64,000 nt of DNA from a virus: positions 64,001-128,000 of the IMG/VR virus record IMGVR_UViG_3300045988_130750; one strand, 5' to 3'. The position numbers were made by a program, and so were the translations under genes. Shown piece by piece: positions 7,547-39,574 of the stretch; within the stretch, counting starts at the first letter, position 1, and every line of letters begins with the position of its first letter. The notes below the pieces were generated by a model. It did no database searches, was not told where the DNA came from, and worked only from the letters and a program-made list of their open reading frames with translations.

Positions 7547-7576
7547 GAGGACTGAAGATATATCAGTCCTCTTTTT
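7547..7576. terminator. bidirectional intrinsic terminator
   Basis: GAGGACTGA-N7-TCAGTCCTC, flanked by an A-run upstream and a T-run downstream. The 3' arm contains the stop codon of the minus-strand repressor gene. Confidence 0.65.
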
Positions 7577-7808
7577 GATGTAATTTTGGATCATCTGTGC
7601 GTCCAACAAGATAGTCAATAGAAACATCAAAGTAATCAGCGAGTTTAATCAGCATATCAAGACTTGGTTTTTTGTTTCCATTCTCAAAATTACCAATAGT
7701 TCCTCTTGTAGATTCAATTTCTTTACCAAGCTGCTCCATAGTAAGACCATTAGAAGTTCTCAATTCCTTTAGTCTTTCAGAAAAACTTGGAAAAAAGAAG
7801 AAAAACAT
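7563..7808 (-). CDS. XRE-family HTH repressor (CI-like)
   Basis: LKELRTSNGLTMEQLGKEIESTRGTIGNFENGNKKPSLDMLIKLADYF is a classic XRE HTH. Start set to ATG 7808, preceded on the minus strand by AGAGGTGA. Confidence 0.8.
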   Translation of the reverse strand: MFFFFFPSFSERLKELRTSNGLTMEQLGKEIESTRGTIGNFENGNKKPSLDMLIKLADYFDVSIDYLVGRTDDPKLHQKED

Positions 7809-7819
7809 AACATCACCTC

Positions 7820-7871
7820 TTGACATAAGTATTCAAATAGAATACAATAATGATGTATTCAAACGGAATAC
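7820..7871 (+). promoter_or_regulatory. sigma-A type promoter with two palindromic operators
   Basis: TTGACA (7820-7825), 17-nt spacer, TACAAT (7843-7848). Operators are GTATTCAAATAGAATAC (7829-7845) and GTATTCAAACGGAATAC (7855-7871). Confidence 0.7.
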
Positions 7872-7892
7872 ATAACTGGAAAGGAGATAATT

Positions 7893-8108
7893 ATGAACCA
7901 GCTAAAACAAATCCGTTTGGAAAATAAATGGACTCAACAATATGTGGCAGATAAAATTAGTATTACAAAATCTGCATATTCAAACATTGAGAATCAGAAT
8001 AGAAGTCCATCACTAAAAGTAGCCATTCAATTACAAAATTTGTTTGGTCTATCAATTGAAAAACTGTTGGAAAATAAGAATAGCAACCCTACACCGACAA
8101 AAGTTTAG
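7893..8108 (+). CDS. XRE-family HTH protein (Cro-like)
   Basis: IRLENKWTQQYVADKISITKSAYSNIENQNRSPSLKVAIQLQNLF is an XRE HTH. Divergent from 7563..7808. SD is AAAGGAGATAATT. Confidence 0.8.
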   Translation: MNQLKQIRLENKWTQQYVADKISITKSAYSNIENQNRSPSLKVAIQLQNLFGLSIEKLLENKNSNPTPTKV

Positions 8109-8346
8109 AAGTTGCCATTCCACCCAATTTGAACTTAGTTCAAAGTCAATTATATTCTATCGTACTTTCTGGACTATTTCAAGTCAATTTTCCAAAAGAA
8201 TTGCACCTTGAAAACTGAATAGCAGATCGGCTATCTGTAAAAGCTGTCGTGAGGGAGTTGAAATACTCTCGATAATGTGCGAGCAAAATGGAGAATAAAA
8301 CATTAGAACATTATCAACAAATTTATATAAGAAAGGAAGATACGAT

Positions 8347-9099
8347 ATGAAAGAAGTATTAGAAACAAGAAATGAAATTGAAATTTTTAACAATGAAAAT
8401 TTCGGACAGATTAGAACTATTGTGATTGATGGAGAACCTTGGTTTATTGGAAAAGATATTGCGATTGCACTTGGTTACTCCGATCCAAAAGATGCATTGA
8501 AAAAGCATGTTTATACTGAAGATAAAGAGGTATTTCAAAAGGGGCGTTTTGCCACCTTAGAAAATATTGATAAATTAAGCATCCCAAATAGAGGAATGAC
8601 ATTTGTTAATGAGTCTGGTTTATATTCGTTGATTTTTGGAAGCAAATTAGATTCAGCAAAGCAGTTTAAAAGATGGGTAACATCAGAGGTTCTTCCATCA
8701 ATCCGAAAGACAGGTGGTTATGTTGCAACTCAATCTAATAAGGTAGAAACAATGCTTGAAGATATGGGATGTAATATGAAAGTTGTGTATGCTCAGATTA
8801 ACAATATGGAAAATATGTTAGGTGAGCAGACAGAAAAGTTAAATCAGGTTGTAGATAATATGACATTAACTACAAGACAGCAGCAGAGAATTTATAAAGC
8901 TGCAAAGGACAGAATTAACAATTTACTCGGTGGAGCACATTCTAAAGAATATAAAGCAAATTCGAAAAGCTATTTTATTAATCTTTGGAATGGCTTGAAG
9001 AGTAAATTTGGATGTGGCAGTTCATACAAGGATCTGAATCCTATTTACTTTGATGATGCAATGAGATTTATTCAGAATTGGATTTACGAAGAGAACTAA
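8347..9099 (+). CDS. BRO-N domain antirepressor-like protein
   Basis: FGQIRTIVIDGEPWFIGKDIAIALGYSDPKDALKKHV matches the BRO-N / phage antirepressor N-terminal signature. Confidence 0.75.
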   Translation: MKEVLETRNEIEIFNNENFGQIRTIVIDGEPWFIGKDIAIALGYSDPKDALKKHVYTEDKEVFQKGRFATLENIDKLSIPNRGMTFVNESGLYSLIFGSKLDSAKQFKRWVTSEVLPSIRKTGGYVATQSNKVETMLEDMGCNMKVVYAQINNMENMLGEQTEKLNQVVDNMTLTTRQQQRIYKAAKDRINNLLGGAHSKEYKANSKSYFINLWNGLKSKFGCGSSYKDLNPIYFDDAMRFIQNWIYEEN

Positions 9100-10741: not shown

Positions 10742-10822
10742 TAAATGACGATTTCAAATGGATTTTTTGGATTGATTAGTCATATAATATATTAGAAATT
10801 ATTGAAAAATGGAGGTAATTGT

Positions 10823-11152
10823 ATGTTTACACTTAATAAAGGAATTAATTATGTAACAATGAAATGGTATATGGAGAATTTAAAAGAGAAAATTGATATC
10901 CGTGATGTCAATATTGCAAACTATAATACAACTGAATTAGAAAATGTTATCAAAGATATTATATCTAATATTAGTATTGGTAATATTGCTGTCACAGAAA
11001 AATATGTGGTGGTAGAAGGAAGAAAACGTATTTATGCCATTAATGCTTTTATTGATGGTAAAATCAAATTCTCAAATAAATATTATACAGAGTTATCAAA
11101 AGAAGAATTTGATATTTTCAATAATTATGAATTAGGAATTTTTGTTGGATAA
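10823..11152 (+). CDS. small protein with a DUF262/ParB-like core motif
   Basis: ATG 10823 follows ATGGAGGTAATTGT. IGNIAVTEKYVVVEGRKRIYAINAF resembles the DUF262 ...y.iiDGqQRl... segment. Confidence 0.4.
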   Translation: MFTLNKGINYVTMKWYMENLKEKIDIRDVNIANYNTTELENVIKDIISNISIGNIAVTEKYVVVEGRKRIYAINAFIDGKIKFSNKYYTELSKEEFDIFNNYELGIFVG

Positions 11153-11262: not shown

Positions 11263-11550
11263 ATGAATATGGGAAATCCAAAAAGAGTGTCAAGATTTAT
11301 ATGTTGTAAACATTTAGGAGAGAATTATATAGGATCTGGCATACAGAGATATGGACATCAGAGAGAAAAATTTCATTGCAAGGATCTATTTTGTTTGCAA
11401 TGTAACGAAATTACAAAAAATTTAGAAATTCGATGGTGTGATGATTATTTGGAAGTATATGAAATGGCTCAACAAATTAGATCATGCTATTATACAGATA
11501 AAATGGAGAATAATAATGATAGAAAGGTGGTTGATGAACATGTGTTATAA
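11263..11550 (+). CDS. Cys/His-rich hypothetical protein
   Basis: ATG follows AATGAGGTGACGAAAA. Several C/H clusters (CCKH...HCKDLFCLQC). Confidence 0.55.
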   Translation: MNMGNPKRVSRFICCKHLGENYIGSGIQRYGHQREKFHCKDLFCLQCNEITKNLEIRWCDDYLEVYEMAQQIRSCYYTDKMENNNDRKVVDEHVL

Positions 11551-12553
11551 AGCAGAAGTTCAAAAGCGAAACGAAGAGAAGTTAAACAAAATGTTGAGAA
11601 ACGAGAATGTTCCTGATTTTATTCAAGATTATTTTTTATCTATTTCGAGCAGAGCAGCAAGAATAAATTATTGGACAACTATTCGTAACACATTGAATTG
11701 GTTAATTGAAAAGAAATATATTGAATGTAAATCAATATCTGATATTTCACCTGAAATATTAGATAAGGTAACGGATTCAAAAATTATTAGATATTTAGAT
11801 TATTTAAAGGAGACTGGAATTAAACTTAGTACATTAGTCACAAAGAAAAACCAGTTGAGTAGTTTCTGGCAGTGGATGAAAGATCGTCATTATTGCAAGG
11901 ACAATATAATACAGTTAATCAAATCAAATGAATATAAAGCAGTAAAGACAAATCGTATGAAAATGCAGAAAATGCCTTTGTATGAAGATATCCAGGAGAT
12001 GATTGAAAAAATAAACCATAAACCAGATGAGTTCATTAGAATTAGAAATATGTGTGTCCTTAGAGTTTTGCGTGGTACTGGTTTAAGAGAGTCAGAGTTA
12101 GCAAATCTTGATTTAGGGGATATATATTTAGATGAAAAATTTATAGATGCATATCATGTAAGACCGTATTCGCTTGTAACAAGTAAAGGAACTTATGATT
12201 ATTCAGATGAAGCTAAAGATATTGTTTATTTAACAAAAGATGCAATTTCAGCTTTAACCGAATGGATTGAATACAGAAATACACTTGATTTTATTATTGA
12301 CAAAGATGCATTATTTCTTAATAAAAATGGAAAGCGTATGAATGAAGATAACATCAAAGCAATGTTTAGAATCTACAGTGGTGGGAAATTAACACCGCAC
12401 ATGATGAGACACGAATATACAACAGTTCTTCAAAGAGAATCAAACGATCCTACATTTGTTAGAGAACAAGGCAGATGGAAGTCAAACGCAATGATGAATA
12501 ATGTGTATGATTCAGGAGCTAGTAGATCCGCAAGTGTTTTGGAGAATATGTAA
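11516..12553 (+). CDS. int: tyrosine recombinase / phage integrase
   Basis: Start refined to ATG 11516 after GGAGAATAATA. LRGTGLRESELANL (box I Arg), HMMRHEY (H-x-x-R) and GRWKS..MMNNVY (catalytic Tyr region). Confidence 0.85.
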   Translation: MIERWLMNMCYKAEVQKRNEEKLNKMLRNENVPDFIQDYFLSISSRAARINYWTTIRNTLNWLIEKKYIECKSISDISPEILDKVTDSKIIRYLDYLKETGIKLSTLVTKKNQLSSFWQWMKDRHYCKDNIIQLIKSNEYKAVKTNRMKMQKMPLYEDIQEMIEKINHKPDEFIRIRNMCVLRVLRGTGLRESELANLDLGDIYLDEKFIDAYHVRPYSLVTSKGTYDYSDEAKDIVYLTKDAISALTEWIEYRNTLDFIIDKDALFLNKNGKRMNEDNIKAMFRIYSGGKLTPHMMRHEYTTVLQRESNDPTFVREQGRWKSNAMMNNVYDSGASRSASVLENM

Positions 12554-12763: not shown

Positions 12764-12792
12764 ATTATAAGTTGTTGCAAACTATATGTCAA
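12764..12792 (-). promoter_or_regulatory. consensus sigma-A promoter for the RHH gene
   Basis: Read on the minus strand: TTGACA (12792-12787), 17-nt spacer, TATAAT (12769-12764). Confidence 0.7.
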
Positions 12793-12819
12793 TTATTTTT
12801 AAAAAATGACATAAACCTA

Positions 12820-12848
12820 TTGACAAGTTGATGACAACTTGCTATAAT
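12820..12848 (+). promoter_or_regulatory. consensus sigma-A promoter for the MazF-like operon, with a palindrome in the spacer
   Basis: TTGACA (12820-12825), 17-nt spacer, TATAAT (12843-12848). The inverted repeat CAAGTTG-ATGA-CAACTTG overlaps the -35 hexamer and spacer. Confidence 0.75.
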
Positions 12849-12904: not shown

Positions 12905-13285
12905 ATGGATTTACAGAGATACGACATAATAAAGGCAAAAATTAATTATGAAGGAAATTCAGTACAAACGAATGAAAGACCTTATGTAATAGTAAGTAAT
13001 CCATTGGGTACAAAATATGCTCCGATTATAACAGTGATGCCTTTGACAAGTAAGATTAAAAAGACAAACATGCCTTGTCATGGATGTATTCAAGCAAATG
13101 AAAATAATGGATTAACATTATATTCTATGGCATTAGGTGAGCAGATCACAACAATCTCAAAAGATGAAGTGATCTCAAAAATTGGAACTATTACTGATGA
13201 TAAAAATAAAAGAATGGTAGATAAAGTATGTTTTAATTCTTTATTTTTTGGAACAGACTACAAGCTTGAGGAGGTAATGGCATAA
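12905..13285 (+). CDS. PemK/MazF-family endoribonuclease toxin
   Basis: RYDIIKAKINYEG...ERPYVIVSNPLG...IITVMPLTSKIKK..MPCHGCI follows the PemK/MazF pattern (RP.v.vS ... P.TS). Strong SD, GAGAGGAGGAG. Confidence 0.75.
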   Translation: MDLQRYDIIKAKINYEGNSVQTNERPYVIVSNPLGTKYAPIITVMPLTSKIKKTNMPCHGCIQANENNGLTLYSMALGEQITTISKDEVISKIGTITDDKNKRMVDKVCFNSLFFGTDYKLEEVMA

Positions 13286-13551: not shown

Positions 13552-13834
13552 AAATTGGACAGTCAATATAATATAATGCAAACAAAGAATGAAAAGAACG
13601 CTTTAATTGAAAAACTTAACGCAACAAAAAAGTTAGTAAACAGAAAAATTTGTTGCATTAACTTTTGCAGAAGAAAATGCGAGCCGCTATTTTGGCATGT
13701 AAACAATTAAGCATTTTTCAACAGTTTTAATCGAATTATATCACATAAAATACCAAAAAAACAGAAAATACAATGTTGAATGTATTAGAAAACCTTTTGA
13801 TTTTGCACTGAGTTTTTCATTTAAGGAATAAAAA

Positions 13835-13887
13835 GAACGTATGTACGAAAAAAAGTAATTGACAAATACGAACATATGTTCTATATT
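13835..13887 (+). promoter_or_regulatory. sigma-A promoter overlapped by two LexA (Cheo) boxes
   Basis: GAACGTATGTAC (13835-13846); TTGACA (13859-13864), 17-nt spacer, TATATT (13882-13887). The spacer contains CGAACATATGTTC (13869-13881), a perfect GAAC-N4-GTTC. Confidence 0.7.
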
Positions 13888-14095
13888 ATTCTTATAAAAA
13901 ATAAATATTGCAGTCTAACAAAATACAAACGGTATTGGCGTACCTCTTTTGATAGACTGCAAAGTAACACATATAGCAGAATTAAATTCCGCTTGATATT
14001 ATTGTACATAGATTTTATTAGAAAGTCAAGTTTTTAAACAATCAAGCATTTCTGCTAAATATTTCATATTTTACAATTTTAATTAAGAAAATTAT

Positions 14096-14167
14096 AGGAC
14101 TATCGCCAAGCGGTAAGGCACAGGACTTTGACTCCTGCATTCGCTGGTTCGAATCCAGCTAGTCCTG
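14096..14167 (+). tRNA. tRNA-Gln (anticodon TTG)
   Basis: Hand-folded cloverleaf: acceptor AGGACTA/TAGTCCT, D arm GCC..GGC, anticodon stem CAGGA/TCCTG with loop CTTTGAC, T arm GCTGG-TTCGAAT-CCAGC, discriminator G. Confidence 0.85.
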
Positions 14168-14213
14168 TTATATAATTTTACACTAAATCAAAAAAGAAAG
14201 AGGAGTGATAATA

Positions 14214-14822
14214 TTGGCACAATATGTTATTACAGATGGTTCTCGTTGGATTATGAAAGATAAAAATGGGAAATTTGTTCCCACATCTTGCGAACCGCTG
14301 GCTGATGTATTTGGTAATAAGGAAGTTAATTCGGTGTATCAAAACAATTTGCCGAAGGCATTGAAATCGGTCTTTCATATCGAGAAGATTGATAAGCCTC
14401 CAAAGTTGGTAAAGCAAATTACACATGCGGAAGTACAAGAGAATACAGAAACGGTGTCGGTTGCAGAAAATATCCAATATTGGGTAGATAAGGTATCTGG
14501 TTTGAATGGACTTGCTGCTGAAGCATTACATAGAAAAGAAGAATTGATTAATCAGTTAAGTGAAGTTGATAAGGAACTTTGCGATATTAATCATTACATA
14601 GAATTTTGCAACTTAAATGCAGCTCAGGGTTATAAAGCATACAAAATGATCAAGGATCGGAGAATAAAGAGACGAAGTATTAAAAATGAGTTGGATGTTC
14701 TTAGTATTATTCTTGGAAAGAAAATATCTGAATCTGTCAGTGATGAATTACAAAAGATGATTAACGGATTAGATGGAAGAAAATATGAGCCAAGAGTAAT
14801 GAATGAGTTATTCGATTTCTAA
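14214..14822 (+). CDS. hypothetical protein with C-terminal coiled coil
   Basis: TTG 14214 lies 8 nt after AGAGGAG; the track start GTG 14205 sits inside the SD. First CDS downstream of the LexA-box promoter. Confidence 0.6.
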   Translation: MAQYVITDGSRWIMKDKNGKFVPTSCEPLADVFGNKEVNSVYQNNLPKALKSVFHIEKIDKPPKLVKQITHAEVQENTETVSVAENIQYWVDKVSGLNGLAAEALHRKEELINQLSEVDKELCDINHYIEFCNLNAAQGYKAYKMIKDRRIKRRSIKNELDVLSIILGKKISESVSDELQKMINGLDGRKYEPRVMNELFDF

Positions 14823-14836
14823 ATGAGGTGATAAAA

Positions 14837-15010
14837 ATGATTTGTAGAGATTGTCGTATTCCAATGCAAAATATAATGTCATTTTCATCGGACAAGCATG
14901 AAAAGTTTTGCAGGTGTCCGAAGTGTTTTGGAGAAACCAAGCACACAAAAATCAAAGATGATGACTTAGATTTTGTAGAAGTATTACATAGGGAAATGAA
15001 CAGGAAATAA
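14837..15010 (+). CDS. small zinc-ribbon protein
   Basis: ATG 14837 follows ATGAGGTGATAAAA. Contains CRDC...CRCPKC. Confidence 0.6.
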   Translation: MICRDCRIPMQNIMSFSSDKHEKFCRCPKCFGETKHTKIKDDDLDFVEVLHREMNRK

Positions 15011-15028
15011 TGTAAGGTGGTGTATCAA

Positions 15029-17125
15029 GTGAACAAAATAGAACTTAACAAAGAACAACTCGCCATAATTGATGAGTATTGTTGCGATGGGATGAAGAAA
15101 CTAAAGAAGTTGTGCGATCCAATTATTATGAAAATTGGTGGGATTAGTGAAAAGGATCACGATGATATTTACAGTTTGGCGCAGTTTCTTCTATATAAAA
15201 GTGTGAAGAATTATGACAAGGATAATGCAAATGGAGCTTCATTTAAGACATTTCTTTACAATATTCTTAGTCGAAGAATTTATGCTACTTATATCAGAGA
15301 TAAGAACCGTCAGTGCCGAAGCAACACGAGAATCGGTAAGAATGGAGAAGTGATATTCATTCCAGATGTTTCGCTTGATGCAGCTACAGAAGAAACACAA
15401 GATATTAAAGAAAAAATTGCATCAGATTATAACGTAGAGGATGCGAGTGAATTTGATTTTACGGTTGATGAGAATGTTGAGAATTTTATGTCGTCATTAA
15501 GTAATATTCAAAGAAAAATACTTGAAATGAAAATGAAAGAAATCCCAACTGATAAGATTAGGTCAGAATTAGGGATTTCAGCAGCTAGGTATGCAAAAGA
15601 AATGGAATCTATCAAACTTAATGAAGGACTGTTAGTGTTTACGAAGAATAGAAAAGAATTTATCGAGGAGGATATGCATATGGAAGAAAGAGTAATGGGA
15701 ATTAGCGAGTCTGAAGGATATAGAATGGATAAGTATTCTATGTTTTCTTTACTTGATATGAAGAAAACAGGTGATATTAACTGTAAGTATATCTTACAGA
15801 GAAAGCCTTTTCAGTGGAGTAACGAGGAGAGAAACAGATATATTTGCAGAATTCTTTCTAATCTTCCAATTCCAGAGATTATTCTTTGTGAACAAAATGT
15901 AAAAGGCATGACGATTTCTCATTTGATTGATGGATTACAACGTTTGTCATATGCTGAAGCATTTAAAGAGAATCATTTCAAGGTTGGAGAGACAGGAGCT
16001 GAGAGGCATTTAATTCAGTATAGAGAGTACATTCATGATGAGAACGGAAATAGAGTTCTTGATGAAGATGGTATCCCAGAATTTGAATTAAAGGTGTGTG
16101 ATATTGTTGGAAAATCATATAAGGATTTGCCTGATGAATTGAAAAAGAGATTTAATAATTTCAATATCAATGTTACAAAATTTTTTAACTGTACAAATGA
16201 ACAGATTGCCGACCATATTCGAGATTACAACAATCACTCAGCTATGAATAATGAACAGTCTGGAATTGTATCAATCTCAACCGATACTGCAAGAAAGATC
16301 AAGACAATCACTGAGAAGTGTGGATTTTTAAAGAATTGTGGTAAATACACCACTACAAACAGGATCAAAGGTAAACTTGATAGAATGGTTGCAGAGATGA
16401 TTATGTTGCTTTTCCATCCGAATGATTGGAAATCTAATGTAAAAGCTACATATAAATATCTTGACGAAAATGCAAAGCAAGAAGAATTCGATACATTATC
16501 TTCTGAATTGGATATGCTTGAATCAGTGATTGAGAATGCTGGCGATGATATCAATGCAATGTTCACTACTACATATACTCCAATGTGGGTTGCAGTATTT
16601 CATAATTTCCTTACAAGCGGTAAAGATTTACATAATTTTGTTGATTTCTTAAATGCATATAATAGTGAACTTAAAGATACAGAAGTTAATGGTGTTTCAA
16701 TGGCAGATTTTAAGGATCAGCAGTCGAAGAAAAAGGCAACTATTACAGGTAAGGTTGATTTGCTTATTCAGCTTATGAATGACTATTTACATATTAATAC
16801 AACCGAAACAGAGAATGATAATACTGAACTTTCAGATGATACAATTCTTAATTTTGTGAAAGAAAATTATAAACCAGATGCAAATGAAGATGATATTAGT
16901 TTTTATTCTGATTTAGTTGATGATTGTGTAAAAATTGATGAACCTGTATATAAAGAATGCCATGCAGCATTAATTACTCTTATGGCATATGCTTGTTCAC
17001 AAGACAAAGATCAAGATTTTGAAAAATGGATTGATAATTACAAAACTAAGTCTGATTTTAGCCCATCGCAAAAGACCAATTTTACATATATGAAGAGAAG
17101 TTTTGATAATTATCTAAATGTATAA
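15029..17125 (+). CDS. sigma-70-family-like N-terminal region fused to a DUF262 (ParB/GmrSD-type) domain
   Basis: N-terminus: FKTFLYNILSRRIYATYIRDKNR (region 2-like) and LSNIQRKILEMKMKEIPTDKIRSELGISAARYAKEMESI (region 4 HTH-like). From about aa 250: LQRKPFQWSNEERNRYICRILSNLPIPEIIL...ISHLIDGLQRLS, the DUF262 signature. Start is GTG 15029 after AAGGTGG. Confidence 0.6.
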   Translation: MNKIELNKEQLAIIDEYCCDGMKKLKKLCDPIIMKIGGISEKDHDDIYSLAQFLLYKSVKNYDKDNANGASFKTFLYNILSRRIYATYIRDKNRQCRSNTRIGKNGEVIFIPDVSLDAATEETQDIKEKIASDYNVEDASEFDFTVDENVENFMSSLSNIQRKILEMKMKEIPTDKIRSELGISAARYAKEMESIKLNEGLLVFTKNRKEFIEEDMHMEERVMGISESEGYRMDKYSMFSLLDMKKTGDINCKYILQRKPFQWSNEERNRYICRILSNLPIPEIILCEQNVKGMTISHLIDGLQRLSYAEAFKENHFKVGETGAERHLIQYREYIHDENGNRVLDEDGIPEFELKVCDIVGKSYKDLPDELKKRFNNFNINVTKFFNCTNEQIADHIRDYNNHSAMNNEQSGIVSISTDTARKIKTITEKCGFLKNCGKYTTTNRIKGKLDRMVAEMIMLLFHPNDWKSNVKATYKYLDENAKQEEFDTLSSELDMLESVIENAGDDINAMFTTTYTPMWVAVFHNFLTSGKDLHNFVDFLNAYNSELKDTEVNGVSMADFKDQQSKKKATITGKVDLLIQLMNDYLHINTTETENDNTELSDDTILNFVKENYKPDANEDDISFYSDLVDDCVKIDEPVYKECHAALITLMAYACSQDKDQDFEKWIDNYKTKSDFSPSQKTNFTYMKRSFDNYLNV

Positions 17126-17249
17126 CAGAGAATAATTAAGTAAGAAACAGAAATTAGAAATCATCTTAGGACAATCCTCCGATTACATATGTCACTTCTG
17201 ACAATTCTTAAATGTTATTTTTGAAAGTATAATTTCTGTTTATATATAA

Positions 17250-17322
17250 AGCGGATTAGTGTAATGGTTTAGCAAGCAGAGCTTTGACCTCTGAGGTAAG
17301 AGTTCGATTCTCTTATCCGCTG
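17250..17322 (+). tRNA. tRNA-Gln (anticodon TTG), second and sequence-distinct copy
   Basis: Acceptor AGCGGAT/ATCCGCT, anticodon stem CAGAG/CTCTG with loop CTTTGAC, T arm AAGAG-TTCGATT-CTCTT, discriminator G. The D stem has only 3 bp. Confidence 0.7.
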
Positions 17323-17326
17323 TTAT

Positions 17327-17399
17327 GGATCATTAGCTCAGTGGTTAGAGCAGTCGGCTCATAACCGAAAGGTCATAGGTTCGAGTCCTATATGATCCA
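17327..17399 (+). tRNA. tRNA with CAT anticodon (Met or Ile2)
   Basis: Acceptor GGATCAT/ATGATCC, D arm GCTC-AGTGGTTA-GAGC, anticodon loop CTCATAA, T arm ATAGG-TTCGAGT-CCTAT. Lies 4 nt after the previous tRNA. Confidence 0.85.
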
Positions 17400-17558
17400 T
17401 TATAAATTAAAGAAAGGAGAAATAATATGTCATATTGGACTTATAACTTCTAAATTAAGAAAATTCATTATTGATGGAGATATTGGAAGTGAAGTAGATA
17501 AACTTGCCAAAATTTTTAGACCTGATTTAGAAGAAGATGAGATTATCACAAAAGAGCG

Positions 17559-20162: not shown

Positions 20163-20207
20163 CAGGAAGAAATTCACGTTTCATAGGAAATTTTGGAGGT
20201 TAAGACA

Positions 20208-21236
20208 ATGACAATTGAGCAAATTAAGGACAAATTAAAATCAAAAGAGTATGACTTCCTGAGAACAGATAAGAATTTGGGTGACAATATCATTATCTTA
20301 ACTCTTGGTGGAAGTCATGCATATGGAACTAATAATGAGGGTAGTGACTTAGATATTCGTGGTTGTGCTTTAAATAGCAAGATGCAAATTCTTACAAACG
20401 AGAATTTTGAGCAGTTTGTAAATAATGAAACAGACACGACTATTTATGCATTTAATAAGTTAGTTGCTTTATTAAGCAATACAAATCCTAACACAATTGA
20501 GATGCTTGGAAATAAGCCAGAACATTATTTCTATGTATCTCCTATTGGTCAGGAACTTATTGACAATGCACATTTATTCTTATCAAAAAGAGCTTGTCAT
20601 TCATTTGGTGGATATGCGAATCAGCAGCTCTATAGATTGAATCAGAAAGCAGCACATCAGATGTCTCAGTCAGAATTGGAGAAACACATTTTAAAGACGC
20701 TTGAATTTATGCAGACAGATTTTACAAAGAAATACACACCATATTCAGATGATTCAATGAAGTTATATATTGATAAGGCTGTACAGGAAGGATATGACAC
20801 AGAGATTTTTATGGATGTGAACCTTACTCATTATCCATTGAGAGATTATTGCTCTATGTGGAATGAACTTCAGAACACAGTTCGTCAGTATGGAAAGATT
20901 GGTAAAAGAAATGAGAAAGCTATTGAGCATGGTAAGATTGCAAAACATTCAATGCATCTCATTCGACTTTATATGATGTGCTTAGATATTCTTGAAAAAG
21001 AGAGAATAATCACATATAGAGAAGATGAACATGATTTGCTTATGGATATTCGTAATGGTAAATATCTCGACAGCAACGATCAGCCAATTCCTGAGTTCTT
21101 TGAAATGGTAAATGACTATGAGAAGAGATTGGATTATGCAAAGAAAAATACTAATCTTCCTGACAATCCAGACTACAAGAAAATCAATGAGTTTGTTGCA
21201 AGTGTAAACGAAAGGGTGGTTAAGGGTGAAATCTAA
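20208..21236 (+). CDS. Pol-beta-superfamily nucleotidyltransferase, RlaP-like (RNA-repair associated)
   Basis: ATG 20208 follows TTGGAGGTTAAGACA. LTLGGSHAYGTNNEGSDLDIRG is the GS...D.D nucleotidyltransferase motif in the context typical of the COG3541 / RlaP family. Confidence 0.6.
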   Translation: MTIEQIKDKLKSKEYDFLRTDKNLGDNIIILTLGGSHAYGTNNEGSDLDIRGCALNSKMQILTNENFEQFVNNETDTTIYAFNKLVALLSNTNPNTIEMLGNKPEHYFYVSPIGQELIDNAHLFLSKRACHSFGGYANQQLYRLNQKAAHQMSQSELEKHILKTLEFMQTDFTKKYTPYSDDSMKLYIDKAVQEGYDTEIFMDVNLTHYPLRDYCSMWNELQNTVRQYGKIGKRNEKAIEHGKIAKHSMHLIRLYMMCLDILEKERIITYREDEHDLLMDIRNGKYLDSNDQPIPEFFEMVNDYEKRLDYAKKNTNLPDNPDYKKINEFVASVNERVVKGEI

Positions 21237-22602
21237 ATTAAAAATTAAAATCCCATCTGGTGCAAATGAGATTATTCATACACTCCAAGATAAAGGATAT
21301 GAAGCATATTTAGTTGGTGGATGTGTTCGTGATAGCATTCTGAAAAGACCAATTCACGATTATGATATTACAACATCTGCTACACCTGATGAGATGATGG
21401 AAGTATTCAAAGGTAAAAGAATTATTGAAACTGGCTTACAGCATGGAACAATAACAATTGTCATTGATGGCGAACCATACGAGGTAACAACTTACAGAAT
21501 TGATGGTAATTATTCTGACAATCGCAGACCAGACAAAGTAACATTTACACGAAGCCTTGAAGAAGATTTAAAGCGTAGAGATTTTACAATCAATGCAATG
21601 GCATACAATGATGAAGTTGGTCTTGTAGATCCGTTTAATGGCATGGAAGATATTAAATACCACAAGATTAGATGTGTTGGCAGAGCAGAAGACAGATTTT
21701 CAGAAGATGCATTAAGAATTTTACGTGCTATTCGATTTGCCTCACAGTTGGGATTTGTCCTTGAACCTGATACAGATTGGAATATCTCTAAAATGTATAA
21801 GAATTTGGAGAATATATCTATTGAAAGGATCAATAGTGAGTTCTGTAAAATTGCTGCATCGAGTGATTTCTGTGTACAAATGGTCTTATATCACGAAGTA
21901 TTCTCATTGTTCATTCCTGAAATTAAAGATATGTTTGGCTTTCAACAGAATAATCCATATCACATGTATGATGTATGGAATCATACAGTACATGCAGTAC
22001 AAGCTTATGAATGTGATTGTGAACCCGACTTGAACCCAAGAGATTTGATTACATCATTGGCTGTATTTTTTCATGATATTGGAAAGCCACATTGTTATCA
22101 AGATGGCGAGGATGGTATTAGACATTTCAAAGGTCACGGAAGAGTAAGTGCTGATATGACTGATACAATTATGAAAAGACTTCGTTTTGATAATGATACA
22201 AGAGAAAAAGTAGTGCAGCTTGTTTATTATTATGATGCAACTTTTGAGGTAGGAAAGAAATATGTCAAGAGATGGCTTAGTAAAATTGGAGAAGAACAGT
22301 TCAGAAGGTTATTAGATGTTCGTAGAGCTGATATTAAAGCACAAGCAGACATTAATCAGGAAACAAGATTACAGAAGATTGATAATATCGAATACATTTT
22401 AGAAGAAGTCTTACAAGATGATGAATGTTTTTCTCTAAAGGATTTAGCAGTTAATGGTAAGGATTTAATTACTATTGGATATAAGCCAGGAAAAGAAATT
22501 GGTGAGGTATTAAATAATCTGTTGGATTCAATCATTAGTGGAGAATATATAAATGAGAAAGAAAAATTATTAGAAATAGCAAAGAGGAGATTATATGGTT
22601 AA
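21226..22602 (+). CDS. cca: CCA-adding tRNA nucleotidyltransferase with HD domain
   Basis: YLVGGCVRDSILKRPIHDYDITT (head motif), RDFTINAMAY, and FFHDIGKP (HD). Overlaps the upstream gene by 11 nt. Confidence 0.85.
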   Translation: MKSKLKIKIPSGANEIIHTLQDKGYEAYLVGGCVRDSILKRPIHDYDITTSATPDEMMEVFKGKRIIETGLQHGTITIVIDGEPYEVTTYRIDGNYSDNRRPDKVTFTRSLEEDLKRRDFTINAMAYNDEVGLVDPFNGMEDIKYHKIRCVGRAEDRFSEDALRILRAIRFASQLGFVLEPDTDWNISKMYKNLENISIERINSEFCKIAASSDFCVQMVLYHEVFSLFIPEIKDMFGFQQNNPYHMYDVWNHTVHAVQAYECDCEPDLNPRDLITSLAVFFHDIGKPHCYQDGEDGIRHFKGHGRVSADMTDTIMKRLRFDNDTREKVVQLVYYYDATFEVGKKYVKRWLSKIGEEQFRRLLDVRRADIKAQADINQETRLQKIDNIEYILEEVLQDDECFSLKDLAVNGKDLITIGYKPGKEIGEVLNNLLDSIISGEYINEKEKLLEIAKRRLYG

Positions 22603-33256: not shown

Positions 33257-34342
33257 ATGGCAAGAGCATTAGCGCATATTGAAGAAATTAATTCTATTAT
33301 CCCAATTGAGGGCAAGGATAGAATTGTATTAGCAACAGTATTAGGTTGGACAGTAATTGTTCAAAAGGATTTTAAGGTAGGAGATAAGGTTGTATTTGCA
33401 GAGATTGATTCTGTATTTCCTGATAAGCCTGAGTTTGAATTTTTAAGAAATAAGAAATTCCGTATTAAGACAATGAAGATGGCAGGCGTAATTAGCCAGG
33501 GAATTGTATTCCCATTATCAATTCTTCCAGAAGGAGAATATAACATTGGTGATGATGTAACAGATATTCTTGGCATCACACAGTATGAACCAACAATGGA
33601 TAAAGAAGAGATGGATACAGAAAGTATAAAGACACCTGTGAAGAAATATCCTGAATTTTTAATGAGAATGAGTTGGTTTAGAAAGCTTGTATTACCAAAG
33701 AAACAGGCTAAAGGTTTCCCAAGTTTTATTAGTAAGACTGACGAAACAAGAATTCAGAATGCACCTTTCTATCTGAATATGGATTGTAATTGGATTGCAA
33801 CAGAAAAGGTAGATGGACAGAGTGGTTCATTTACATTGCAGCGAGTAAAGGGTAAGCATTTTTGGAATAAGGATACATATGATTTCGCAGTTTGTTCAAG
33901 AAATCTTAGAAAGTGGAAGAAAGATACATCTTCGTTTTGGAGCGTTGCTGAGAAATACAACATCGAAGAGGTTCTTCATAAGTTAATTGGAGACAACGAG
34001 TGGGTAGCAATTCAAGGAGAATGTGTTGCATCTAATGTTCAGGGCAATAAATATCATGTTACAGAACCAGATTTATATGTTTTCAATTTAATTTATCCAA
34101 GTGGAAGAGTCGGATCTGTAGAAGCAAAGAAGATTGTAAATAATTTAGGGTTAAAGTTTGTTCCTATTTTATCTGAAAATGCACAGATTAAAGGAATGAC
34201 TGTACCAGAAGTTCTTGAATATGCAACAGGCAAAAGTCAGTTATATGACACTCTAAGAGAGGGAATTGTATTCAGAAGCGAAGATGGAAAGCAGTCATTT
34301 AAGGCAGTTAGTCCTGAGTTTTTATTGAAGAATAACGAGTAG
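33257..34342 (+). CDS. ATP-dependent RNA ligase, Rnl5-like (DraRnl/NgrRnl type) with N-terminal OB-like domain
   Basis: N-terminal LAHIEEINSIIPIEGKDRIVLATVLGWTVIVQKDFKVGDKVVFAEIDSVFP; motif I EKVDGQS; then CSRN, IQGECV, LYVFNL, EGIVFR, FKAVSPEF. Confidence 0.7.
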   Translation: MARALAHIEEINSIIPIEGKDRIVLATVLGWTVIVQKDFKVGDKVVFAEIDSVFPDKPEFEFLRNKKFRIKTMKMAGVISQGIVFPLSILPEGEYNIGDDVTDILGITQYEPTMDKEEMDTESIKTPVKKYPEFLMRMSWFRKLVLPKKQAKGFPSFISKTDETRIQNAPFYLNMDCNWIATEKVDGQSGSFTLQRVKGKHFWNKDTYDFAVCSRNLRKWKKDTSSFWSVAEKYNIEEVLHKLIGDNEWVAIQGECVASNVQGNKYHVTEPDLYVFNLIYPSGRVGSVEAKKIVNNLGLKFVPILSENAQIKGMTVPEVLEYATGKSQLYDTLREGIVFRSEDGKQSFKAVSPEFLLKNNE

Positions 34343-39272: not shown

Positions 39273-39574
39273 AGAGAGAATAGTTAATTAGAAGTTATTC
39301 ACTGTTTACCGAAAACTTTAAACTACAACTCATCAGTCTTTTGCAGAGATAGACTTATGTAAAGCTGAAAAAGAAATCTGCAAAATAATAAAAAATATTA
39401 CAAATTATTGAATTAATAAAAGATGATTAATTTATATGATTTGTATAATTTCAACTTACTACAGTACATAATTCGGCAAGATAATGGTGAAACCATTGGC
39501 TGATATGTATAACATTAAATATGAAATTATACTATAATTATCAGATTGCCTACGATAATGATAGGTGTGTGCTG

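Follow-up and report, generated by a model that had tools for sequence, protein, structure and literature searches.

What is switched on by a strong promoter that is embedded in apparent binding sites for the host repressor LexA, and what would keep it silent in a lysogen, are the questions raised by a locus in a large phage of gut Lachnospiraceae. The locus lies in a stretch of 64,000 nucleotides from the IMG/VR virus record IMGVR_UViG_3300045988_130750 (positions 64,001 to 128,000 of that record), which is called the window here and in whose coordinates positions are given. The phage itself is a ~157-kb prophage, and the scan for repressors and further LexA boxes covers 64 kb of it. The reading developed below, to which we give a probability of roughly 0.6, is that the promoter at 13859 forms the SOS-gated entry to the lytic programme of this large temperate phage; it rests on the conservation of the boxed promoter, on a predicted antisense RNA gene that faces it and on a sigma-like gene in the operon behind it.

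Probable LexA boxes in and above the promoter

The LexA consensus of Bacillus and Clostridia is GAAC-N4-GTTC/GTTT (PMC4234289). A perfect GAAC-N4-GTTC core is found at 13870-13881, inside CGAACATATGTTC (13869-13881), which makes up the last 13 nt of the spacer of a sigma-A-type promoter, and the 14-mer around this core has one mismatch to the Bacillus consensus CGAACATATGTTCG. A weaker box stands upstream of the -35 hexamer, and transcription is predicted from the promoter position to start near 13894. The promoter and both boxes had been proposed in a first-pass annotation made from the letters of the window, and all of its positions proved exact to the base when they were read directly from the sequence.

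Within a single window, the evidence for LexA is weak and no more than suggestive. Perfect GAAC-N4-GTTC cores occur twice in the 64 kb against 0.37 expected, and two sites are also reached in 5 of 100 shuffles, which makes the excess only moderately unlikely to arise by chance. The second perfect site (60271) falls within a coding region and has no promoter context, and such context is absent as well at the four relaxed matches (RAAC-N4-GTTY) in the window. As short AT-rich palindromes are common as phage operators, these marginal figures would also suit a reading in which the boxes are chance occurrences or the operators of a phage-encoded repressor, with host LexA uninvolved.

The comparison across relatives, by contrast, is strong and decisive. 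From each of 91 related loci (numbered L002 and so on), the 820 nt ahead of the first conserved gene were collected, which gave 52 distinct sequences, and 99 windows of 820 nt from the same loci served as controls. A promoter-embedded box with at most one mismatch is present in 42 of the 52 orthologous upstream regions and in none of the 99 controls. The box is perfect in 16 of the distinct sequences, has one mismatch in 26 and two in a further 9 (51/52 with at most two), and most of the two-mismatch boxes read AAAC-N4-GTTT, in which the natural GTTT variant is made palindromic. The half-sites alone are conserved, with fourteen different N4 sequences among the 52 relatives, and the box sits either at offset 5 of the spacer, against the -10 hexamer as in the window, or at offset 1, against the -35 hexamer, while TTGACA and a -10-like hexamer are kept. 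Half-sites that are kept around a free N4, in a position that can move, point to a transcription-factor site and not to recent common descent. A second box with at most two mismatches is found 24-41 nt upstream of the spacer box in 37 of the 52 relatives, and in the near-identical relative L002 this distal box (GAACATATGTAC) differs from that of the window inside N4 only.

A prophage in a Konateibacter massiliensis record (L109) carries another promoter constructed in the very same way, TTGAAA-aa-GAACAACTGTTC-gat-TATAAT, which directly precedes genes for a Y-family polymerase (IMS), a 106-amino-acid (aa) open reading frame (ORF) and an SRAP peptidase (L109:2205-4484). Judged by sequence, this operon is an internal positive control, with canonical SOS genes under the same box. 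Taken by itself, the three-gene unit resembles a phage-borne SOS mutagenesis and repair operon and is reminiscent of uvrX-yolD of SPbeta. The XRE-family repressor encoded in the window uses another palindrome, GTATTC-N5-GAATAC, present at 7829-7846 and 7855-7872 on either side of the -10 hexamer of the cro promoter. Chance, or a phage repressor acting at the boxes in place of host LexA, is therefore a very improbable explanation. The proposal of the first-pass annotation that the boxes are LexA operators is upheld by the same comparison of sequences, namely by half-sites that are kept around a free N4 and by the recurrence of the motif before the polymerase and SRAP genes; LexA control of the 13859 promoter can be called a prediction that is well supported in silico.

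A predicted antisense RNA gene in the leader

The first-pass annotation had placed a ~200-nt hairpin-containing leader behind the promoter. The hairpin is better assigned to the other strand, as the intrinsic terminator of a predicted convergent antisense RNA with a promoter of its own; this conserved minus-strand promoter (14029-14001) had been overlooked. It lies 135 bp downstream of the LexA promoter. The predicted small RNA starts with a 5' hairpin (13993-13975), which is joined by a linker to a long one (13962-13908); the closing U-run (13907-13896) reaches to the +1 of the LexA-boxed promoter. Every one of the first ~100 nt of the sense transcript would thus have its complement in this RNA.

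In the relatives the hexamers of the antisense promoter are kept and the spacer is variable. The strict pattern TTGAC[ATG]-N16-18-TA[ACT][AT]AT is matched in 37 of the 52, and inspection by eye found near-variants in some of the remainder. The leader region folds more stably on the minus strand in all 29 variants (in L003, for instance, -40.7 vs -24.6 kcal/mol), and a hairpin followed by a U-run was obtained for each of the 20 distinct sequences folded, with stems that are wholly different between groups and yet always paired. G.U pairs are counted 36 times on the minus strand vs 10 times on the plus strand.

A covariation count was dropped, as MAFFT did not keep the terminator hairpins of different groups in register, and was replaced by the folding of each sequence, the strand asymmetry of G.U pairs and a controlled terminator test. 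A lax definition of a terminator matched 54% of random windows, which made it non-discriminating, and gave way to a strict one that requires the hairpin to reach -14 kcal/mol or better and to be followed at once by a U-run. Terminators of this strict kind are present on the minus strand in 51 of the 52 leaders and on the plus strand in none, compared with 1.8% of 380 random windows.

The apical loop of the long hairpin reads CGCCAA in the window, and this loop or a near variant recurs in many groups, with the inverted form UUGGCG in one group, so that a YUNR-type loop is always present on one of the two partners. Such a loop is compatible with the initiation of pairing by kissing loops. No Rfam 15 family matches the antisense RNA on either strand (E<=1 for the window, E<=0.01 for four relatives). 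A TTCTGCT element is also kept in the window (14040-14060) and in relatives, ~25-35 nt beyond the antisense -35 hexamer in plus-strand coordinates.

Table 1. Features of the boxed locus and its surroundings in window coordinates.
Feature	Position	Strand	Description
XRE repressor, 87 aa	7563-7826	-	helix-turn-helix (HTH) only, no S24 peptidase domain
Bro-N/ORF6C antirepressor (Ant)	8347-9099		part of the XRE cassette
Ribbon-helix-helix (RHH)/CopG-like gene, 57 aa	12560-12733	-	perfect promoter 12792-12764 (-)
MazF/PemK-like toxin	12905-13285	+	overlapping 88-aa ORF; perfect 12/12 promoter with TG extension, 12820-12848
Distal LexA-like box GAACGTATGTAC	13835-13846	none	GTAC in place of GTTC as its one mismatch; 12 nt before -35
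Sigma-A-type promoter	13859-13887	+	TTGACA 13859-13864, 17-nt spacer, TATATT 13882-13887; 11/12
Spacer aatacgaacatatgttc	13865-13881	+	17 nt between -35 and -10
Proximal LexA box CGAACATATGTTCT	13869-13882	none	fills spacer, abuts -10
Predicted 5' leader of SOS-controlled transcript	13894-14094	+	placed from promoter position
Predicted ~100-nt cis-antisense small RNA	13896-13994	-	5' hairpin, linker, long hairpin, U-run
Antisense promoter	14001-14029	-	TTGACT (14029-14024), 17-nt spacer, TACAAT (14006-14001); 10/12
tRNA-Gln (UUG)	14095-14168	+	first gene after leader
202-aa protein	14214-14822	+	TTG start; ribosome-binding site GAGGAG at 14200-14205
60-aa four-cysteine zinc-ribbon protein	14828-15010	+	CRDC...CRCPKC
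702-aa fusion protein	15017-17125	+	sigma-70-family domain ~aa 30-200; DUF262/GmrSD_N domain aa 264-409
tRNA-Gln and tRNA-Met	17250-17400	+	directly downstream, no plus-strand terminator between

The operon and what it may switch on

The N-terminal ~200 residues of the 702-aa ORF are identified by profile comparison as a sigma-70-family domain. The NCBIfam model TIGR02937 matches the whole 702-aa protein at 3.4e-8 and is matched by all 11 sigma orthologues (best 2.3e-14), and a profile built from these 11 orthologues matches sigma-H (3.7e-7, regions 2-4), SigA, FliA and SigF in the PDB. The description of this ORF in the first-pass annotation as a sigma::DUF262 fusion stands as regards the sigma-70-family domain at its start and fails as a general feature: the fusion is seen in the window and in L011, L019 and L020, whereas in most relatives (L003, L008, L009, L010, L030, L046, L048, L109 and L110) a sigma gene (184-224 aa) and a DUF262/GmrSD_N gene (466-510 aa) are separate and adjacent, sometimes with tRNAs between them. 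The common gene order in the relatives examined is 202 aa, 60 aa, sigma and DUF262. The tRNA that had been placed under the promoter is likewise present in the window and variable elsewhere, the leaders of relatives carrying none, Gln, or Gln and Met. Where leader tRNA-Gln and tRNA-Met occur together they can be separated by a conserved, structured-looking stretch of ~160-270 nt (L003:3635-3889, L020:3732-3888, L008:3626-3893), which has no Rfam match at E<=0.01 and is absent from the window.

Across the family the 202-aa protein shows 62-100% identity, and its basic C-terminal half is almost invariant; it has 1014 homologues, none of them named. It has no match in Pfam, NCBIfam or the PDB, nor among cultured phages or plasmids, and matches one PHROG of unknown function; its AlphaFold2 model (predicted local distance difference test score 61) shows a helical hairpin, for which a Foldseek search returned coiled-coil noise and uncharacterised virome proteins only. 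A homologue of the 60-aa protein stands between the 202-aa and sigma genes in most of the relatives examined, and none is detectable in L046, L109 and L110.

The promoter landscape of the window fits a sigma cascade. Only three plus-strand promoters with at least 11 of 12 consensus positions exist in the 64 kb, at 7820 (cro), 12820 (mazF-like) and 13859. The first-pass annotation had seen no other strong promoter before 17125; a scan for promoters of at least 11/12 bears this out and extends it to the end of the window, with none on the plus strand over the 50 kb that follow 13859, nor did a terminator turn up on this strand up to 30 kb. This makes 13859 the last host-type promoter before the lytic replication block, which encodes tRNA nucleotidyltransferases, an RNA ligase, a methylase, Sak4, a DnaB-like helicase, a primase, RecJ, a DNA polymerase, an NAD ligase and NrdD.

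Several further observations concern this block. A recurrent motif, (A)GAGAGAATA, is found on the plus strand near gene ends and between genes at 17128, 24762, 25885, 29062, 33218, 38554, 39276, 40161, 52590 and 58610, and is a possible promoter for the phage sigma factor; in relatives, TTTTTACAAT-N9-10-GAGAATA occurs just upstream of the leader tRNA-Gln. A RAGATH-27 RNA (Rfam RF03100) lies in a 550-nt intergenic region at 39298-39382 on the plus strand, with 93.4 bits against a gathering score of 76.1. A toolkit for tRNA repair (20193-22602 and 33257-34342) comprises two nucleotidyltransferases, one of them a CCA-adding enzyme, and an RNA ligase, and co-occurs with the duplicated tRNA-Gln(UUG) and the tRNA-Met (14095, 17250, 17326), which hints at a defence against host anticodon nucleases. 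In relatives this region also carries genes for Thg1, RlaP, SIR2, TerD and a P-type ATPase.

Large phage genomes of the kind seen in the window, with contigs of up to ~160 kb, form a family with many members in IMG/VR and in metagenomes; in the latter, near-relatives of the operon proteins number from hundreds to about a thousand. Among cultured phages and plasmids no close relatives were found, the only megablast matches being to tRNAs. That the hosts are Lachnospiraceae follows from integration in a 3.0-Mb chromosomal record of K. massiliensis and in a contig of Eubacterium segne.

In the proposed mechanism, dimers of host LexA would occupy the spacer box and the weaker upstream box in the lysogen and thereby exclude RNA polymerase. 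Upon DNA damage, self-cleavage of LexA stimulated by RecA would let the promoter fire, and the tRNA-Gln, the 202-aa protein, the zinc-ribbon protein and the phage sigma factor (fused to DUF262 here) would be transcribed. The sigma factor would redirect host polymerase to the ~50 kb of plus-strand genes for replication and nucleotide metabolism that are without near-consensus sigma-A promoters, with the 202-aa and zinc-ribbon proteins as its presumed partners in switching on this block. A second brake would act at the RNA level: the antisense RNA, made constitutively, would inactivate any leaky sense transcript by pairing with its first ~100 nt, and the transcription of the antisense RNA may add some transcriptional interference. 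Only full derepression from LexA would exceed the threshold set in this way, the near-consensus promoter then out-running the antisense RNA.

The promoter could also be gated by LexA and yet act through an antirepressor, if the 202-aa or the 60-aa protein inactivated a non-cleavable repressor, be it the 87-aa XRE protein or another, in the manner of Tum of coliphage 186, Gifsy AntO-type proteins or Sar of SPbeta/phi3T, with the sigma factor playing its part later. Antirepressors normally co-vary with their repressors. Small antirepressors under LexA control are widespread (PMC3121763; bioRxiv 10.1101/2025.11.27.690993), a small protein is indeed encoded after the LexA box here, and the XRE repressor, with an HTH domain and no S24 peptidase domain, cannot sense RecA itself. 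Against this, the XRE/Cro/Bro-N antirepressor cassette (7563-9099) already holds an antirepressor of its own, the 202-aa and 60-aa proteins match no antirepressor family in Pfam or PHROGs, and the conservation of the 202-aa protein extends across phages with differing neighbour genes. Moreover, the five relatives for which 10 kb of upstream sequence are available share 95-100% identical 202-aa, 60-aa and MazF-like proteins, and the cassette is missing from four of them: a CI/Cro pair is present in one (L114) and the Ant (Bro-N) gene in none. Action through an antirepressor is for these reasons considered unlikely.

The same comparison removes the XRE switch from the design. The cassette sits in a hypervariable stretch of small ORFs, and the gene content of the relatives marks it as an accessory insert that behaves like a mobile immunity cassette. 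The two-lock arrangement of LexA promoter and XRE switch that the first-pass annotation had put forward is thus a trait of the isolate and not the design of the family. Beside the LexA promoter, the relatives keep a 95-aa gene, a tyrosine recombinase, the divergent RHH gene and the MazF-like gene, the last of which adjoins the promoter in about 106 related loci; divergent perfect consensus promoters at 12764-12848 drive the RHH and MazF-like genes. A reading after the model of SPbeta, in which the tyrosine-recombinase-like gene at 11438-12553 would be an integrase-fold repressor of the SroF/YopR type with a LexA-controlled Sar adjoining it, was considered and rejected: its product can be aligned to XerA/XerC/XerD and seems to have kept the Arg, His-x-x-Arg-His and C-terminal Tyr, and no dispersed long operator repeats are present in the 64 kb.

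Smaller differences mark this upstream region. A stretch of ~237 bp (13598-13834) with an imperfect 21-nt inverted repeat (13608-13628 / 13649-13669) is missing from the otherwise near-identical L002, the indel lying between two AAAAGAAC repeats. A plus-strand 116-aa ORF (10802-11152) gives a weak GmrSD_N/DUF262 match (E 9e-4) and counts as a second, truncated DUF262-like gene upstream of the recombinase, and in the E. segne prophage a gene for IS605 OrfB/TnpB, with a Cas12f-like TNB domain, is inserted a few kb upstream of the module (L110:1972-3117).

The presence of a MazF-like toxin gene, with its divergent RHH gene, immediately upstream of the unit, and of a C-terminal part of the 702-aa protein that matches GmrSD_N, the N-terminal domain of type IV restriction enzymes, raises the question of whether the whole is an SOS-inducible accessory or defence module in place of a lytic switch. 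Variable accessory genes such as TerD, SIR2 and RlaP are indeed abundant in this region of the relatives. The module itself, however, belongs to the core of the family (about 100 loci) and is not variable, always includes a sigma-70-family gene, and stands at the head of the replication block with the last of the strong sigma-A promoters. Nor was a DUF1524/HNH nuclease half detected. A defence function in place of a lytic switch is hence quite improbable.

Some points weigh against the SOS-gated lytic entry that we prefer. The distal box deviates at a core position (GTAC) and may bind LexA weakly, and the consensus applied is that of Bacillus and Clostridia, which may differ from the motif of the actual host. 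The window sigma domain scores below the curated NCBIfam cut-off (36.8 vs 42.9 bits), and a tblastn comparison of the sigma domain with 72,556 plasmids, directed at pBS32 and its sigma factor SigN, gave no match. A search of the window established no motif for sigma-dependent promoters; GAGAATA occurs 64 times on the plus strand vs 5 times on the minus strand, a bias that cannot be told apart from the effect of ribosome-binding sites and of a purine-rich coding strand. The effector could be the 202-aa or the 60-aa protein instead of the sigma factor. The hairpin of the window is nearly equal in stability on both strands (-19.6 vs -18.7 kcal/mol), which leaves the strand assignment in the window to the U-run, the promoter and the relatives.

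A bolder version of the lytic entry can be imagined, in which the phages of this widespread family of ~150-kb Lachnospiraceae prophages encode no master repressor whatsoever: host LexA, acting at a single promoter, would maintain lysogeny together with the constitutive antisense RNA as a threshold filter, and one LexA-gated sigma factor would launch the whole lytic cascade. This we regard as speculative and rather unlikely. If true, it would amount to a double lock of protein and RNA on one promoter that is universal across a lineage of gut phages.

The locus matters beyond the isolate, as these phages are abundant and their hosts, the Lachnospiraceae, are a dominant and hard-to-study clade of the gut. 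A conserved SOS entry point that is defined by sequence predicts which drugs would induce the phages, namely DNA-damaging antibiotics and chemotherapeutics, and LexA operator, convergent antisense RNA and phage sigma factor make up a compact circuit that can be tested. That an obvious CI/Cro pair can be an accessory cassette and not the real switch bears on the automated prediction of prophage inducibility.

Relation to known SOS-triggered switches

The first-pass annotation had regarded direct LexA control apart from the XRE switch as an unusual design. LexA control that is separate from a non-cleavable repressor is known, however, from SigN of pBS32, Sar of SPbeta/phi3T, the Gifsy antirepressors and GIL01. 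Tum of coliphage 186 is a LexA-controlled antirepressor. Further examples are found in Gifsy/Fels (PMC3121763) and in Sar of SPbeta/phi3T (bioRxiv 10.1101/2025.11.27.690993). In these systems, as is predicted here, the SOS signal enters by a LexA box on a separate promoter and not by self-cleavage of the repressor, and the SPbeta-like phages are also large prophages of Firmicutes; at the present locus, in contrast, the downstream proteins show no antirepressor homology and the partner repressor cassette is not conserved.

Constitutive cis-antisense RNAs are part of the SOS regulon of E. coli, where SymR faces symE and IstR faces tisB and the sense promoters of symE and tisB are LexA-controlled, and the sar RNA of the P22 immI region is a constitutive cis-antisense RNA that opposes an inducible promoter. 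Attenuation by a convergent antisense RNA has been described for RnaG/icsA of Shigella (PMC2879508). The RNA predicted here resembles SymR, IstR, sar and RnaG in having its own promoter and terminator, in its convergent orientation and in its complementarity to the 5' region of a transcript under tight repression. It differs in being directed at the untranslated leader of a long phage operon and not at the ribosome-binding site of a toxin gene, in having a terminator that abuts the sense +1, and in belonging to no Rfam family.

In the Clostridia, a damage-inducible alternative sigma factor encoded by a mobile element exists in UviA, whose gene is under UV/LexA control. UviA of Clostridium perfringens pIP404 and the TcdR group of clostridial sigma factors (PMC4885068) differ from the present case in their sigma subgroup and in their target, which is a bacteriocin or toxin gene.

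In the tectivirus GIL01 of Bacillus thuringiensis, the role of a CI repressor at the early lytic promoter P1 is taken by host LexA together with gp7 (PMC4551915, PMC6182141). It shares with the present locus the Firmicutes SOS boxes in a promoter that starts lytic expression, and most relatives of the window show no CI-like repressor within 10 kb. By contrast, GIL01 is a 15-kb linear plasmid prophage that needs gp7 as a co-repressor, turns on its late genes by the LexA homologue gp6 and not by a sigma factor, and has no antisense RNA described.

While the single elements are known, a locus that joins a LexA operator to a conserved cis-antisense RNA and a phage sigma operon, and keeps this combination across a family of large gut Lachnospiraceae prophages, has to our knowledge and in the literature searched not been described. 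Functionally, the nearest known system is sigN of pBS32, a LexA-controlled sigma factor encoded by the element that drives a replication regulon (PMC6751061). In both cases host LexA acts, or is predicted to act, on a strong sigma-A promoter upstream of a sigma-70-family gene of a mobile element, with DNA damage as the trigger and with the replication and nucleotide-metabolism genes of the element as the presumed regulon. Unlike in pBS32, one or more tRNA genes, the 202-aa gene and the zinc-ribbon gene here precede the sigma gene, which comes third or fourth in the operon and is fused to DUF262 in the window; the promoter is opposed by a predicted cis-antisense RNA, and the mobile element is a ~157-kb prophage integrated in a Lachnospiraceae host. 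The locus would thus work like the SigN system without being a member of the SigN family, and is a recognisable variant of the known SOS-triggered prophage switches.

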